NCBI GenBank assembly: GCA_965116025.1
Contig: OZ220480.1
Location: forward strand, 416,001 to 480,000
From: an uncultured candidatus Porisulfidus sp.
GTDB lineage: Bacteria; Pseudomonadota; Gammaproteobacteria; Poriferisulfidales; Poriferisulfidaceae
Length of the DNA stretch: 64,000 nucleotides
Direction of reading: 5' to 3'
In this document: piece after piece, positions 12,193-64,000 of the stretch
How positions within the stretch are numbered: position 1 is the first letter of the stretch
Layout of the letters: each line of letters begins with the position of its first letter
The notes under the pieces: model-generated
The model's database searches: none
What the model was told of the DNA's origin: nothing
What the model saw: only the letters and a program-made list of their open reading frames with translations
Program-made: the position numbers and the translations under genes

Positions 12193-12384
12193 TCAGATGC
12201 CCGGCGCGGCGTGGGAATTCTCTTCCGACGACCCGCGAGTCCCACGTCCTCGACGGAACGCTCCGTCAGGCCGAATGACCCGTTTCTGGCGGACCGGAGC
12301 GAAAGCCCGGCTCACGCTTTCCGGAAGCGCCAGCCGTATGTAGCGGACAACATGATCGCTCTCCAGCAAGTCGTCTCTTTTCAT
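12193..12384 (-). pseudogene. Probable truncated partner gene of 12381-12797
   Basis: ATG overlaps the upstream stop (ATGA); the first about 16 codons (MKRDDLLESDHVVRYI) look protein-like, then the sequence degenerates into GC-rich intergenic-like DNA. Confidence 0.35.
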
Positions 12385-12797
12385 TCGTAGAGTAGCGCGC
12401 TCAGATCGAAAGCGTCAATCTGTCGCGATACGCCGTCGAAAGAATCACGACCGACGACGCGGGAAATTCGCCGCTTGGCCCCGCGCCGCTTGAAGATCAC
12501 GTATTGCGCCATTCCATCGCCAAGGAACTGCACCCCGAGGTGTGACCCATGCCCATCCTTCCAAACCGCGCGGAGGTTGCCGTTATCCATCAGCAGAAGG
12601 CCGCCCTTTCGAAAGCGAGGTGTTAACTTGATAAAGGCCCAGAAGTCGGCCTCCGACTCCGAATTCAGACGATATCCGTCATCCCTCGCGTAGGCTTTCA
12701 ATTCATCAATTCTAGAGGCATAGGCCCGCGCCCGAAGCGACGCGCGCGTTAGACCATCGAGATCGAATGCGAAACTTGGGACATTGCTATCGGTCAT
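12381..12797 (-). CDS. Hypothetical protein (accessory)
   Basis: 138-aa ORF, lower GC than the backbone, motif LLLMDNGNLRAVWK...LGVQFLG...YVIFKRR. Confidence 0.7.
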   Translation of the reverse strand: MTDSNVPSFAFDLDGLTRASLRARAYASRIDELKAYARDDGYRLNSESEADFWAFIKLTPRFRKGGLLLMDNGNLRAVWKDGHGSHLGVQFLGDGMAQYVIFKRRGAKRRISRVVGRDSFDGVSRQIDAFDLSALLYE

Positions 12798-13092
12798 CTT
12801 GGCGGGTCAAGCGAGAGATGATGTGGGGAGTGATCCTCTATTCGCTCCCGGATGGCCTAATGCTTGCCATCAAGAGCGGAGCGCCGTAAAACGGAAACCG
12901 GGCGCGCCAAACTGGCCCGCGAGACCACTCCCCTCGCGCTTTTAGCGACCCCATAAAGACGCGCCCGCCGCCGCACGGCGTTGATAGGCGACGGGCACTA
13001 GCCGGGCCTCGCGCGACACGATATAAGCGCGGCGGCCCGGATTCTTTCATTATCTCATCTCCACCCCAATCGCCAGCGCGTCCGCCGCATCA

Positions 13093-13262
13093 TATATGGT
13101 TCGTCCCCTCCCTGCAAGCCGGAAGCTGAAGCGACGGTCGACTGGCCACGCGCATATACCCGGTCTCTCGGTAGAAGGGCCACCGCCTTCCGGGCCCCGA
13201 TGGGTTCCACACGCTCCGGCCTTATCATTCAAATGGCCTTGAAGGCCTGTGTGCAATCAGGC
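13093..13262 (-). mobile_element. Orphan right end and non-coding (bridge/seek RNA-like) region of an IS110-family, IS1111-group element; no transposase attached
   Basis: - strand ends ...CTTGCAGGGAGGGGACGAACCATATA|TG. Its IR (GGGACGAACCAT) matches the reverse complement of the left IR at 62911 at 11/12 nt; internal hairpin GGCCTT-C-AAGGCC and motifs CCCATC and TATATG. Confidence 0.6.
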
Positions 13263-13399
13263 GGTTCGCGTTTTAAATGGCGTTCGCATGGCTTTCATAT
13301 CTCCATTTGCTGGACTCCCTCGGTAGAGTCGGCGTGACCGGGACCTCCCTTCTTTGCAGATAGATCAGATATCGGAGTCATCGAAACCCTGGACGCGTG

Positions 13400-13426
13400 G
13401 GAACAAACAGGCGACAATGCTGTCCA
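13400..13426 (+). promoter_or_regulatory. Possible ECF-sigma promoter upstream of the DUF2282 gene
   Basis: GGAAC-N17-GTCCA about 45 nt upstream of ATG 13473; pattern match only. Confidence 0.3.
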
Positions 13427-13472
13427 TAGTCCCTGCGGCTATCGCCCCCCTTTATCTCACCCTGAGGCTAAC

Positions 13473-13757
13473 ATGAAAAAATCTCCTTCTCTGGCATCCA
13501 GCCTGATCGCGCTGGCCCTGGGCTCCGGCCTCGCCTCCACCTCCGCGCTGGCGGTTCCCGACGCTCCCAAGAACTGGGAGAAATGCGCTGGCGTCTCCAA
13601 GGCGGGCATGAACGATTGCGGCGCGACGGATGGCGCGCACGGTTGCGCTGGAGCTGCTCCGGAAGACGGCATGGAAACGGAATGGATCTACGTCCCGGAA
13701 GGCACCTGCGAGAAAATCGTGGGCGGGTCGGTGTACGCGACCAAACCCGCGAAGTAA
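13473..13757 (+). CDS. DUF2282 / BufA1-type bufferin precursor (signal peptide, 4 Cys)
   Basis: Sec signal ending ALA, then [15 protein letters not shown]...HGCAG...[16 protein letters not shown], the DUF2282 signature. Confidence 0.9.
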
Positions 13758-13767
13758 GTCTCGCTTG

Positions 13768-14607
13768 ATGCCACCGGGCGCGAATCGGACGACCTCGCTC
13801 GCGGGAATGGGGGTCGGCTTGCGCGGCCCCCATGTCCCGGATATCTTGCGGCAAAGTCCCGCTGTTCCTTGGTTCGAGCTGCTGACCGACAATCACTTGC
13901 GCGACGGGGGCGCGCTCCGGTTCCAAGCCGAGGCGGTCGCGGAACGATACCCCGTGGCTCTGCACGGCGTCAACCTGTCACTCGGCGGCATCGACCCGCT
14001 GGATCATGAATATCTGGGTCAGGTCCGGGACCTCGCCCACCGCGTCGATGCCCGCCACGTCTCCGAGCATCTGGCCTTCGCAGCCTGCCAAGGCATCCAC
14101 AGCCACGACCTGCTGCCATTGCCATGGACGGAAGAAGCGCTGGGACATGTGGCGGACCGGATTTCGAACGCCCAGGATTTCCTCGGCCAAACCATCTTGG
14201 TCGAGAACATCTCCACCTATCTGGAGTACCAGCATTCCACTATGACCGAAGCCGACTTCTTGCGAGAGCTTTGCGCGCGAACCGACTGCGGGCTGCTTCT
14301 GGATATCAATAACGTCTACGTCAACTCAGTCAACCACGACCATGACCCGCGAGACCTGTTGGACTCCATTCCCTGGGCCCGGGTCCGCGAGGTTCATTTG
14401 GCGGGCCACGAGGAGCGCGACGGGCTCCTGGTCGATACGCATGGAGGACCCGTCAGCGATGACGTGCTGAATCTGTTTCTGGACGTGGCCCCCAAAATCC
14501 CGGAGGTTCCCGCGCTGTTCGAATGGGACACTTCTCTGCCCGCATGGCCCGTCGTCTGGCAGGAAGCCCAACGGCTTGACGAGGCCTTCCGGGCCGCGCG
14601 CGCGTGA
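13768..14607 (+). CDS. DUF692 multinuclear non-heme iron oxidase (MNIO, BufB-like)
   Basis: GVGLRGPH, WFELLTDN, HGVNLSLGG, VSEHL, DLLPLP, LVENIS, LLLDINNVYVN, EVHLAGH, VDTHG, FEWD. Confidence 0.93.
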   Translation: MPPGANRTTSLAGMGVGLRGPHVPDILRQSPAVPWFELLTDNHLRDGGALRFQAEAVAERYPVALHGVNLSLGGIDPLDHEYLGQVRDLAHRVDARHVSEHLAFAACQGIHSHDLLPLPWTEEALGHVADRISNAQDFLGQTILVENISTYLEYQHSTMTEADFLRELCARTDCGLLLDINNVYVNSVNHDHDPRDLLDSIPWARVREVHLAGHEERDGLLVDTHGGPVSDDVLNLFLDVAPKIPEVPALFEWDTSLPAWPVVWQEAQRLDEAFRAARA

Positions 14608-15380
14608 ATCTCGCGGACCTCCAGGCCAAAATGCTGGAGGCGGTCACCGGAGCGGCGCGTTCGGATCCTAAGCTCGCCTCCCTGATTCCGCCAGCCCGCG
14701 GAATCGCCCCAGAGACGAGGCTGAACGTCTACCGCGCCAATATCCGGGAAGCGCACCTGAAAGCGCTCGACGATGCCTATCCGGTCACCCGGAAGGTCTT
14801 GGGTCCCCGCTATTGGCGGCAGCTGCTGGCGCGGGAAATCCCGGCGTTCGGGTCCCGATCTCCCGATCTGCATGACTACGGGGGCTTCCTGCCAGAATTA
14901 CTTGACCAAGCACAGAAGCGCCGGGAAGAATTGGCCGACTTCGACTATTTGGGCGAGCTCGCGCGGCTCGAGTGGCTGGTGCGCATGGCGGGATTCCAAG
15001 CCCCCGATCCGGATTTCGACTGGACCGCCTTTCGATCACTGGGAAAGGACCGCCAAGCGCGAGTCCGGTTCGTCTTGAGCGACGCGCTACGCTGGACTCG
15101 ATTCTCCCAGCCCGTCGACGCGCTGTGGCATTCGCACCAAGAAAACGGACAAGACCTTCCCCCGCAAGCCCCGGTCGCCTGCTGCGTCTGCCGGAAACAA
15201 CGCTTCGATGTCACGGTCCGCCGGCTATCCGAGCGCGAATGGACGCTTCTGGAAGCCATCGGCGAAGGCCGATGCCTGGAAGAAATTCCCCACAGTGCTT
15301 CCGAGACCACCGCGAGAACCCTGCTCGACTGGATTCGACGAGGATGGATCAGCGGCTTTCAGGAAGAGCCGCCCGGCTAA
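14604..15380 (+). CDS. DUF2063 / BufC-HvfC-type MNIO partner protein
   Basis: LADLQ...RLNVYRAN...L...YPVT...G...YGGFLP...[10 protein letters not shown]; GTGA overlap with DUF692. Confidence 0.88.
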
Positions 15381-62433: not shown

Positions 62434-62901
62434 TCAGGCGAAAAAAGCCACCATCGCGCCCATCAGGCTCGCCATCACGGTCATGGTCATACCCATGACT
62501 AGCCACAAATGCCAATAAAGCCTGGTGAATCGCCGCTGGAAGTCGCTTTCCATCTCCTTCATCTCTCCCCGCAGGACGCCAGCATCCTCTTTCATCTCCA
62601 TCCGCAACCCGCCAAACACCGCTCTCATCTCTCCTCGCAGGCCACCAACATCCTCCTTCATCTCCATCCGCAACCCGCCAAACGCCTCTCTCATCTCCAG
62701 CCGCAACCCGCCAATCTCTTCACCCACCTCCGCTCTCAGGCAAACGAACGCTTTCTCCATATCTGTCCTCAACGCCCCGATCTCTTGGCGCAGATAGCCT
62801 TTTGTGACGAGCTCGCGTTGCGCGTCGCGAATCGTCCCAACCACGGCGCTCGCCTGCTCGGGAGGAAAACCGGCTTTCATCAGTTCGTCCATGGCCCCCA
62901 T
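62434..62901 (-). CDS. DUF1640/CCDC90-like coiled-coil protein with 11-aa repeats and a C-terminal TM anchor; 5' end abuts the IS110 insertion
   Basis: LMKAGFPPEQA...LVTK..LR; repeated (F/I/V)GGLRxEM(K/R) units of 33 bp; hydrophobic C-terminus. Confidence 0.75.
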   Translation of the reverse strand: MGAMDELMKAGFPPEQASAVVGTIRDAQRELVTKGYLRQEIGALRTDMEKAFVCLRAEVGEEIGGLRLEMREAFGGLRMEMKEDVGGLRGEMRAVFGGLRMEMKEDAGVLRGEMKEMESDFQRRFTRLYWHLWLVMGMTMTVMASLMGAMVAFFA

Positions 62902-62903
62902 GG

Positions 62904-64000
62904 TGATGGGATGGTTCGCCCCGCTTCCCTGCTTGGCCTTGAGCGGGCACAATGAGAGTACAACCAACCCATCGCGAAAGCGGGACGACCCTTATGAAGC
63001 AGACTCTACATCAACTGGCCATCGCCCATCTGGGCGTGGACCTGGGCAAGCAGGCGTTTCACGCTTGCGGGATGACGCGCGCCGGCAAGATCGTTCTGGA
63101 GAGGCGCTTCACGCGGGCTCAGCTGGAACGCTTCGCGGAGGAGCTGCCGCCATGCCGGGTCGGGCTGGAGGCCTGCGGCGGCGCGCATCACTGGGCGCGG
63201 CTGTTCCGGCGTCATGGGCATGACGCGCGGCTGATGGCGCCGTCCTTCGTGAAGCCGTTCGTGAAGTCGAACAAGAACGACGCGCGCGACGCGGAGGCGA
63301 TCTGCGAGGCGCGGAGCCGTCCGAGCATGCGCTTCGTGCCGGCGCGGACGGAAGCCGAGCAAGCGATCCAGCAATGCCATCGGACGCGGGCGCGGCTGGT
63401 GCGGAGCCGCACCCGGCTGGTCAATCAGTCGCGCGCGTTCCTGCAGGAGTACGGGATCGTCATGCCGAAAGGGATCGGGGTCTTTCGCGCGCGGCTGCCG
63501 GAGATCCTGGAGGACGGCGAGAACGGCTTGCTTCCGGAAGTCCGCGAGGCGCTGGCGGAAGGTTACGAGGAGGTGCGGGAGCTGGACCGGCGGGAGGGGC
63601 GTTGCCGGGCGCGGATCCAGGCGCATGCCGAGGCCGACCCGGGCTGTCGGCGGCTGATGACGATCCCGGGCATAGGCGCGCTGTCGGCCAGCGCCCTGGT
63701 CGCGAAGCTGGGCGACGGCAGCGAGTTCCGCGACGGGCGGGAGGCGGCCGCCTACCTCGGCCTGGTTCCGAAGCGGTATTCCACCGGCGGAAAGCCGAAG
63801 CTCGGAGGGATCAGCAAGCGGGGGGACCGCGCCTTGCGCGGCCTGCTGATCTTGGGCGCGAAAGCGGTATTGCGGGTCTCGGACCAGCGCGAGGACGCGC
63901 TCGGCGCTTGGCTTCGCGGCCTGCGCGAGCGCCACCACGACAACGTGGCGGCGGTCGCGTTGGCGAACAAGAACGTCCGCATCGCCTGGGCGCTGCTCCG
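62904..64000 (+). mobile_element. IS110-family (IS1111 group) element, left part; runs off the window
   Basis: Left end TGATGGG-ATGGTTCGCCCC (7-nt lead plus subterminal IR, the IS1111/IS4321-type layout) followed by the transposase ORF. Confidence 0.85.
62994..64000 (+). CDS. IS110-family DEDD recombinase/transposase (3' end outside the window)
   Basis: Translated by hand: MKQ...LGVDLGKQAFHACG...GLEACGGAHHWAR...VKPFVKSNKNDARDAEAICEA...TIPGIG...AAYLGLVP..YSTGGK..LGGISKRG...VALANKNVRIAWALL. Confidence 0.93.
   Translation, partial: MKQTLHQLAIAHLGVDLGKQAFHACGMTRAGKIVLERRFTRAQLERFAEELPPCRVGLEACGGAHHWARLFRRHGHDARLMAPSFVKPFVKSNKNDARDAEAICEARSRPSMRFVPARTEAEQAIQQCHRTRARLVRSRTRLVNQSRAFLQEYGIVMPKGIGVFRARLPEILEDGENGLLPEVREALAEGYEEVRELDRREGRCRARIQAHAEADPGCRRLMTIPGIGALSASALVAKLGDGSEFRDGREAAAYLGLVPKRYSTGGKPKLGGISKRGDRALRGLLILGAKAVLRVSDQREDALGAWLRGLRERHHDNVAAVALANKNVRIAWALL

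Follow-up and report, generated by a model that had tools for sequence, protein, structure and literature searches.

A 5'-truncated right end of an IS1111-type element, probably a decaying relic, retains the distal part of a bridge/seek-RNA gene in an uncultured candidatus Porisulfidus genome

Bridge and seek RNAs are currently of interest as programmable guides for recombination. In the IS1111 group, according to published accounts, the transposase gene is followed by a long non-coding region, and the guide RNA is likewise found downstream of that gene (PMC11187229, PMC11208160); a promoter is proposed to form when the ends of the element are joined (PMC11187229). RNA supplied in trans is described as working in experimental systems (PMC11187229), and for IS621 separate target-loop and donor-loop RNAs are reported to support recombination in vitro (PMC11208158). 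The nearest precedent for the locus described here is MITEPpu9/ssr9 of ISPpu9 from Pseudomonas putida KT2440, whose modules, as characterized in PMC12288879, carry both end boxes (A' and B'), are present in 8 copies and form their own minicircles, and whose Ssr9 RNA is not a bridge RNA. In the portions of the IS1111 seekRNA and IS110 bridge-RNA literature cited here, no description of a functional stand-alone bridge RNA was found. A transposase-less natural guide RNA that retargets a recombinase made elsewhere would, if true, be a new layer in the biology of mobile elements. A preliminary description of this locus had raised that possibility; the evidence gathered here points the opposite way, to a truncated, decaying and ordinary copy.

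The window, meaning the whole 64,000-nucleotide stretch of DNA that was analyzed, corresponds to positions 416001-480000 of a 2.02-Mb single-contig genome. It includes most of one full copy of a resident IS1111-type element (copy A), with the following features (window positions unless marked as genome).

62904..64000, plus strand, continuing past the window edge to genome position 480305: full copy A of the IS1111-type element (BLAST, domain matches)
62911-62922, plus strand: left repeat of copy A (sequence read)
62994, plus strand: start of the copy A transposase (open reading frame)

The genome contains seven full copies of this element, six of 1400-1402 bp at 95-98% identity and a seventh of 1368 bp at 91% (BLAST with the element at 62904), and each spans TGATGGG to CCATATA. 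The transposase gene is uninterrupted in six copies and carries one in-frame TAG in copy B. It encodes a protein of 348 amino acids that matches PF01548 and PF02371 and scores 339.9 bits on NF033542 ("IS110 family RNA-guided transposase"; cutoff, 140). The inverted repeats are subterminal and 12-13 nt long, and the non-coding stretch from the stop codon to the element end is 266 bp in full copies. These features agree with the published description of the IS1111 group. Empty paralogous sites read CCATTG^TATC(A/G)AA, and the same conserved half-site adjoins four copies. Three of the four, the window copy among them, lie 2 nt upstream of an ATG, the start codon of a small coiled-coil gene from a paralogous family. 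The coiled-coil gene itself gave only a weak, sub-threshold CCDC90-like match. Full copies are inserted site specifically and without a long target duplication. The genome also holds partial copies, namely a tandem 653-bp 3' piece, three left-end-only pieces and two right-end orphans, and relics with only the left end and relics with only the right end number three each. One of the two right-end orphans lies in the window and is the subject of this report; the second, at genome positions 1475612-1475773, is about 150 nt long at 75% identity and is about 74% identical to the window orphan.

The window orphan was recognized from the following features, all of which lie on the minus strand.

13093..13261, minus strand: orphan IS1111-type right end, 5' truncated, with the distal part of the bridge-RNA gene, the subterminal inverted repeat and the terminus (homology, score on covariance model R1)
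13204-13199, minus strand: CCCATC (sequence read)
13158-13153, minus strand: TATATG (sequence read)
13117-13112, minus strand: TTGCAG (sequence read)
13096..13108, minus strand: right subterminal inverted repeat GGGGACGAACCAT (sequence read, alignment to full copies)
13095-13091, minus strand: terminus ATAT/G (sequence read)

When the sequence was reread, every string quoted in the preliminary description was present on the minus strand where it had been placed. Homology to the resident element starts near 13261 (CCTGA), 13093 is the last position of the element, and T13092 is a base common to element and target. BLAST comparison of 13500..12900 with the whole genome recovered the right ends of the 7 full copies and 1 partial copy at 81.8-85.4% identity over 160-170 nt, with E values of 2e-46 to 7e-41, as well as a ninth, weaker match at 73.8%. 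This similarity is far above chance, and the proposed identity of the fragment, an IS1111-type right end related to the copy at 62904, was borne out as the last ~169 nt of such an end at 82-85% identity. The reported agreement between the terminal repeats was also reproduced: the reverse complement of GGGACGAACCAT, the last 12 nt of GGGGACGAACCAT, matches the left repeat ATGGTTCGCCCC of copy A (62911-62922) at 11 of 12 positions. Nor was there reason to revise the statement that neither a transposase nor a left end is adjacent, since tblastn returned 0 matches at E<=10 within +/-1.5 kb, no suitable open reading frame was present there, and the 15-nt left-end motif occurs only at 8 other places in the genome. 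Measured against the characters of the IS1111 group, the full copy has a transposase with PF02371 and the orphan has none. Of subterminal inverted repeats of 7-17 bp at both ends, the orphan has the right one with no left repeat adjoining; of the long downstream non-coding region, it is homologous to the last ~169 bp of 266 bp; and of site-specific insertion, only the right junction survives. Outside its own genome, the best match to the orphan among 41 genomes is 78-79%, no full-length parent with a closer right end was found among those 41 genomes, and exact-pattern scans of a metagenome collection for such a parent returned 0 matches.

Between elements whose transposase amino-acid identity is only 66-73%, the non-coding region of the family is ~82% identical. 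An initial structure was obtained with RNAalifold from 8 sequences. The predicted RNA has three parts: two outer stems; a target domain comprising a basal stem, a 3-bp CCU/AGG clamp, an internal loop and a GGCC hairpin; and a donor domain comprising a short closing stem, an internal loop and a stem with a hairpin. A covariance model, R1, was built from 12 sequences with 167 positions and 41 pairs, and it gave 56 matches over 57 sources, every one of which spanned the whole model. In loci fetched via the transposase, the R1 match lies downstream of the transposase match, and the R1-positive elements include members from other phyla with transposase identities of 45-53%. Across 54 distinct sequences, in an alignment that was fitted to the R1 model itself, 92.7% of cells pair; the corresponding values are 73.3% for shuffles and 33-41% for slid controls. 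Changes on both sides were seen in 35 of the 41 pairs. The 8 complete RNA copies in the genome scored 180.9-197.6 bits on R1, and those in congeners scored 174-186 bits. Rfam 15 returned 0 matches to the orphan at E<=10 and 0 matches at E<=1 to the full copy L001 and the congener relic L121. Of the scan with covariance models that the preliminary description had proposed, the Rfam 15 part was uninformative, as a full copy also went unmatched, whereas R1 detected the orphan at 70.4 bits, compared with ~181-198 bits for complete copies. Folding stability relative to shuffles did not discriminate either, the z-score being -0.35 for a full RNA and 0.15 for the orphan, whose folds are no more stable than shuffles. 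A by-product of this work is a covariation-supported model for the right-end RNA of an IS1111 subfamily that Rfam 15 missed at either test locus.

Mapping of the orphan onto R1 gave the following parts.

13249..13256, minus strand: remnant of the target-loop 5' (top-strand) guide, TTGCACAC, 1 nt shorter than in all 12 aligned full elements
13235..13247, minus strand: target-loop distal hairpin GGCC-TTCAA-GGCC, with 5/5 model pairs kept
13224..13234, minus strand: target-loop 3' (bottom-strand) guide ATTTGAA, then constant TGAT (flank matches in full elements)
13211..13219, minus strand: 3' strand of the target basal stem, CCGGAGCGT, with its 5' partner missing (model mapping)
13148..13210, minus strand: donor-binding loop domain, with closing stem, 5' loop with CCCATC, stem and hairpin, and 3' loop with TATATG; 13/14 pairs kept
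13132..13146, minus strand: 3' strands of both outer stems, GCCAGTC and CCGTCG, partnerless (model mapping)

Missing from the orphan are the 5' ~35 nt of the RNA, the source of one strand each in both outer stems and in the target basal stem; upstream of the basal-stem 3' strand the orphan reads ACGCGAACCG in place of ACGCTCCG. Among the proximal pairs, 7/19 form, which is the level of chance and of the slid controls, and with the 1-nt gap assigned to the guide 21/22 of the distal pairs form. In the family the target-loop distal helix is 94% paired, with 5/5 pairs covarying among 54 distinct sequences, and the suggestion that the fragment contains a bridge/seek-RNA region is sustained by a covariation-supported structure that covers the distal part of the orphan. 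The donor stem is broken by a C-A apposition at model pair 101/130, a compensatory change from G-C to A-U is found at 106/119, and three C-to-U changes leave G.U pairs. Two further substitutions, at columns 151 and 152 in an outer-stem strand, fall where none of the 12 full elements varies. The orphan has the same donor guides as the resident copies, and its target guides differ from those of every resident copy. In neither of two predicted folds of the fragment do the target guides lie in an internal loop with a basal stem, and the 5' guide is placed in a small hairpin loop. Of the parts that characterize a bridge RNA, the orphan has a donor loop with guides that match the junction, and it has neither a target loop closed by a basal stem nor the outer stems.

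The target- and donor-loop assignments are supported by the correspondence of guides to flanks in 12 elements. The 8 nt that follow CCTGR are complementary to the right flank, with cognate scores of 8, 5, 5, 4, 7, 2, 6, 8, 8, 6, 7 and 7 of 8, and this top-strand guide has a cognate mean of ~6/8 and a non-cognate mean of 2.9 with a standard deviation of 1.5 (124 comparisons). The constant TGAT is identical to the left end's first 4 nt. The 6 nt that precede it equal the 6 nt on the left side of the element, with a cognate mean of 3.7/6 versus 1.9 for non-cognate comparisons, and the last 3 nt of the bottom-strand guide agree at 2.4/3 versus 1.1. Sister copies with different guides occupy correspondingly different sites (A, D, E and F versus B and C). 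Targets built from the copy A guides are of the CATTGTATCAAA type, and those built from the orphan guides are of the TTTGA(A/G)T-GTGCAA type. The left flank of copy G matches the guide of copy D at 5/6 and its own guide at 0/6, which hints at guidance from another copy in the genome. These natural guide/flank pairs, a second by-product, show reprogramming between sister copies of one genome. As for the donor loop, CCCATC pairs with the left-end start GATGGG, and TATATG corresponds to the right-end terminus with the left end's first base added. Because the two hexamers match the halves of the right-end/left-end junction, their earlier assignment as donor guides is right; they lie in the two strands of the donor-binding internal loop and match the junction CCATATAT/GATGGG.

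The orphan is most likely a 5'-truncated, decaying right-end relic of an IS1111-type element amid mobile-element debris. The analyses above establish the homology and the truncation, the architecture of the family's RNA and the lost pairing partners, and from them we infer an order of events. The source would have been a sister lineage that had diverged from the IS1111-type element now active in the genome. A complete element would have inserted at the locus, and a later deletion, or a replacement tied to the neighboring IS1380-family element, would have taken away the left end and the transposase gene, together with ~100 nt at the start of the 266-nt downstream non-coding region, including the 5' ~35 nt of the bridge/seek-RNA gene. 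Still present are the distal target loop, in which the hairpin and the two guides persist, a donor loop that is almost intact, and the terminus with its subterminal repeat. We infer a lack of function as well: since the outer and basal stems cannot form and there is no evident promoter, the orphan is most likely inert as a guide RNA. The preserved distal part (21/22 pairs) could mean a lingering constraint, but divergence before the parent ceased to function would account for it just as well.

One further feature is located directly upstream of the orphan, in the same orientation.

13290..13377, minus strand: IS1380-family left-end remnant, 75-77% identical to three left ends

The three IS1380-type copies used for reference lie elsewhere; two are full length, and of the third only the first ~460 bp are known. 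The protein of the copy at genome positions 1873603-1875469 scored 190.6 bits on NF033539 (cutoff, 180) and matches PF13701. Between the orphan and this remnant are 28 nt (13262-13289) that are assignable to neither element. Insertion of the fragment into an IS1380-type element was considered and rejected, as its right flank has no similarity to that element (blastn, tblastx). A cluster of tRNA-Pro/Arg/His/Lys genes and a DUF2282/MbnB-like/DUF2063 operon lie 0.9-3.3 kb apart on one contig in 9 of 15 congeners, and the sequence between the cluster and the operon differs in each congener. The ~1-kb segment at ~12340-13389, which includes the orphan and an open reading frame of 138 codons, had no counterpart in the 15 congeneric genomes. 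The edge at ~13389 was rejected as an insertion junction; it marks only where a conserved promoter-region block, lying upstream of the DUF2282 gene, stops. A syntenic 5.1-kb contig from a diverged relative (run X3, ~92% identity) is ~91-95% identical to the window and covers 12343-12874, 12945-13153 and 13387-14300 in order, with 561 other letters replacing 13154-13386. Since this contig carries the right junction and the last ~60 nt of the relic, both predate the divergence of the X3 lineage, and the 5' side differs between lineages. The retention of these ~60 nt together with the right flank also indicates that the relic is old and has not been purged.

The right flank bears on whether the element decayed where it had inserted. 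Ungapped, the top-strand guide of the orphan matches the right flank at 2/7; with one bulge and two U.G pairs it matches at 7/7, by a scoring that was chosen after the data had been seen and that 0.6% of random genomic 12-mers starting with T also reach. Two C-to-T transitions and a deletion would account for the difference between guide and flank. Each of the six substitutions at paired positions that are specific to the orphan is a transition, either C-to-T or G-to-A. The fit of guide and flank is only suggestive of decay in place. It was also considered whether the right flank is a degenerate left end, as in a fossil circle junction or a tandem dimer, and this was rejected because the semi-global score was 1.0, compared with a shuffle mean of 2.0. 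Beyond TGATG, the flank is identical to the left end at 8/12 positions, a value that was equaled or exceeded at 1070 of 4830 TGATG control sites. No sign was found that the left-end relics and the orphan are parts of one element split by a rearrangement, since their break points are not complementary (ends near element positions ~153, 195 and 330 versus an orphan start of ~1237).

Relics that keep the RNA gene are not confined to the window. In the genus, R1 matches 6/16 genomes with 22 matches in total. A transposase was detected by tblastn at 11 of 15 genus loci checked, and the four without one are the window orphan, the second orphan, a locus cut by a contig end and a relic in the congener G006. 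The G006 relic has no transposase; it retains ~100 nt from the 3' end of that gene, an RNA that is complete (39/41 pairs, 121 bits on R1) and the right end, and it is flanked by an AAA_14/DUF4143 gene and by tyrS. Of the genomes sampled from the class, R1 matches 22/151, or 20/149 when the unpublished G079 and G180 are left out. By tblastn, the 24 loci from published class genomes comprised 14 with a near-full transposase, 6 with a C-terminal piece only (one of them near a contig start) and 4 with none (one of them with an IS110-type open reading frame on the opposite strand), so that 10/24 loci that match the full-length model have a 5'-truncated transposase or none. Genome G103 contains three internal-deletion derivatives and at least 5 5'-truncated copies, one of which is a 229-bp piece that starts in the target basal stem. 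C-terminal-only pieces outnumber N-terminal-only pieces in the class sample (~11 versus 5), but a retention bias cannot be claimed because G103 supplies 6/11 of the former and the genome of the window shows 3 versus 3. Relics that retain the RNA gene are frequent and merit a proper survey. It is nonetheless unlikely that such right-end relics, instead of being random debris, are a recurrent and persistent by-product of IS1111 elements of which some, the orphan included, still act, whether through a donor-loop RNA, a donor-like junction or a fixed circle-junction promoter. If true, relics could supply donor-loop RNA, offer donor-like junctions to a recombinase made elsewhere or bring the promoter into neighboring genes.

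A narrower form of activity would be the co-option of this relic alone, either as a promoter toward the 138-codon open reading frame (12797-12381) or as a donor-like junction, CCATATAT/GATGCG, for recombination. The relevant sequence is the following.

13089..13117, minus strand: putative outward-facing hexamers TTGCAG and TATGAT with a 17-nt spacer, formed by the element end and the flank TGATG (sequence read)

These are the same hexamers and the same spacing that a circle junction joining the right end to the left end would give, the right junction matches the donor junction at 13/14 positions, and the last ~60 nt with the flank are retained in the diverged relative (X3). The hexamers, however, match the consensus at only 8/12 positions, under the scan threshold of 9/12, and the flank is not derived from a left end beyond TGATG, so it lacks the left inverted repeat that a donor would have. 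We regard co-option as quite improbable, and a residual role of the orphan as a donor-loop RNA, a promoter or a recombination site would at present be unsupported.

There is very little to recommend the second half of the preliminary description's proposal, which had offered either a relic or a stand-alone guide RNA that retargets a recombinase supplied in trans. Such an RNA might be produced by read-through from the IS1380-type remnant and redirect the recombinase of the 7 resident copies. It would carry the donor guides of the resident copies on a donor domain that keeps 13/14 pairs, together with target guides unlike those of all resident copies; split loops suffice in vitro for IS621 in the published assays (PMC11208158), trans-supplied RNA is described as working in both experimental systems (PMC11187229), and the flank of copy G fits the guide of copy D (5/6) and not its own (0/6). 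Since split IS621 loops work in vitro, a transcribed donor-loop fragment could in principle be active. The donor loop of the orphan, however, would only duplicate the resident ones, and a donor-loop-only RNA would duplicate the resident product. The target loop is the only part able to retarget, and it is the damaged part: it lacks the 5' strand of the basal stem, and its guide carries a 1-nt deletion. A consensus scan of 12700-13500 found 0 promoter-like sites at the threshold of 9/12. At <=1 mismatch, 0 genomic sites fit the target that the present guides imply, and at 2 mismatches 11 do, no better than the 11 obtained with a reversed-pattern control; the inferred ancestral target (14 positions) also has 0 genomic sites at <=1 mismatch. 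The fragment is single copy and was present in 0/15 congeners searched. What stands of the proposal is the relic: the 5' stem is missing, which the preliminary description had itself named as evidence against a functional RNA, and the stand-alone guide is disfavored by the damaged target loop and by the lack of a promoter-like site in the scan and of a genomic target.

The least credible reading, and a very unlikely one, is that of a MITE-like mini-element (compare MITEPpu9/ssr9), a ~170-bp unit that begins at a pseudo-left end TGATTGC and was moved by a recombinase in trans, because, although the fragment starts within 3 nt of TGAT much as the true left end TGATGGG does, ISPpu9 is described as forming minicircles with the small-RNA module only (PMC12288879), and another class genome has two 5'-truncated copies with one truncation point, the 6 nt to the left of the orphan TGAT match its own bottom-strand guide at only 1/6, on which ground movement of the ~170-bp unit alone was rejected, no resident guide fits by eye, the left inverted repeat is absent, the fragment is single copy with a second orphan only 74% identical, its left side is an IS1380-type end with no target half-site, and the copies elsewhere that share a truncation point also share 60 nt upstream and so belong to a larger repeat. 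The second orphan was likewise rejected as a mini-element with a GATAGG start read by its own donor guide; in the alignment, that start is a target-guide remnant with internal deletions.

As a probable decaying right-end relic, the orphan is compared here with known systems through the resident family. Like the elements whose right ends encode seekRNA (ISEc11, ISPa11 and ISKpn4; Siddiquee et al. 2024, PMC11187229), the resident family has a DEDD transposase, a long downstream non-coding region and subterminal inverted repeats. In the seekRNA as described there and in the RNA of the family, the top-strand match lies 5' of the bottom-strand match and the two overlap at the insertion point, and the long form of seekRNA is ~154 nt, compared with 167 model positions here. 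The resident family is not among the IS1111 elements named in that account, and its targets differ from theirs (PMC11187229). Unlike the seekRNA-encoding right ends, the orphan comprises the 3' ~169 nt only, without the transposase, the left end and the 5' ~35 nt of the RNA.

Comparison with the IS621 bridge RNA as published (Durrant et al. 2024, PMC11208160; Hiraizumi et al. 2024, PMC11208158) shows that both RNAs have target and donor internal loops, each of which pairs with both DNA strands. The position of the RNA differs, being in the left end and upstream of the recombinase in IS621 and in the right end in the resident family, as in the IS1111 group (PMC11208160). The "handshake guides" of IS621 (Hiraizumi et al. 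2026, PMC13626964) are resembled by the constant TGAU, which stands after the bottom-strand guide and equals the left end's first bases; by analogy TGAU may have a handshake role in the resident family. MITEPpu9/ssr9 shares with the orphan the character of a small-RNA-bearing piece of an IS110-family element that lies away from the transposase in a genome with full copies (PMC12288879). Unlike ssr9, the orphan has a right end only, is single copy and has flanks unfit for insertion as a unit; it is a partial copy of an already known kind of element.

One route by which 5'-truncated right ends such as the orphan in the window (the truncated right end of an IS1111-type element) can arise is indicated by a tandem arrangement elsewhere on the contig, whose structure is consistent with one copy having inserted into another (at element position ~753) and homologous recombination having acted afterwards. 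Remnants of both ends are found at a second locus, and G103, another published genome of the same class, contains a related element whose termini are the same.

Genome 1413615-1415668 (locus L004, outside the window): full element copy with a 653-bp 3' piece of another copy directly after it
Genome 1471590-1475773 (locus L138, 790-4974): left-end relic and second right-end orphan, in the same orientation
Genome G103, loci L169-L178: related element, sharing the termini TGATGGG ... CCATATAT

The G103 element has given rise to many defective derivatives, including three internal-deletion forms that retain both ends and at least five that are 5' truncated. Two of the truncated forms are cut at the same position and share the 60 nt upstream of it, and their right flanks differ. 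At L138, the left-end relic (~150 bp, 86% identity) is separated by 3.9 kb from the second right-end orphan (75% identity), and between them lies an open reading frame of 1,186 amino acids whose product carries an autotransporter beta-domain (PF03797, 88.6 bits). The guides of this second orphan, that is, the bridge RNA segments that match target flanks, do not fit its own flanks. The pair may be the fossil of a cargo-carrying derivative or may be a coincidence.

Targeting by the full copies was examined at the following sites.

Window 62434-62903, minus strand: small coiled-coil gene, with paralogous sites near genome 1697475, 595865, and 254724
Genome 94937-96304 (locus L139): copy G, 1,368 bp, 91% identity

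The insertion points of copies A, E, and F lie 2 nt before the ATG start codons of small coiled-coil genes that are paralogues of one another; the products of these genes contain internal GGLR.EM repeats and a hydrophobic segment at the C terminus. The target, CCATTG^TATC(A/G)AA, is kept in paralogues that carry no insertion; at the empty site at genome ~254724, 13 consecutive nucleotides match the copy E and copy F guides, yet no element is present. The left flank of copy G agrees with the copy D bottom-strand guide at 5 of 6 positions and with its own at 0 of 6, as would be expected either if the RNA of another copy had placed it or if its own guides had drifted after insertion.

The orphan in the window is flanked by the following features.

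Window 12381-12797, minus strand: 138-codon open reading frame, with the orphan on one side and the tRNA cluster on the other
Window 12960-12977, minus strand: terminator-like hairpin with a T-rich tail, between the orphan and that reading frame
Window 13473-15380, plus strand: operon encoding a DUF2282 precursor-like protein (PF10048), an MbnB/TglH/ChrH-type enzyme (PF05114), and a DUF2063 protein (PF09836)

The 138-codon frame had no matches in Pfam, NCBIfam, or PHROGs, and no copy was found at nine syntenic loci of congeners. Ten of the 15 differences listed inside it relative to the X3 contig (a 5.1-kb contig ~91 to 95% identical to the window) fall at third codon positions, a pattern that suggests a real gene. 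The hairpin was the single terminator-like site found by the scan, against 0.6 expected from shuffles. In the operon, the enzyme matches PF05114 at 324.6 bits, and an upstream block of ~80 nt beginning CTGGAC(A/G)CG..GGGAACAAA is kept in eight congeners. We take this set of DUF2282, MbnB-like, and DUF2063 genes to resemble operons for bufferin-type copper-binding peptides.
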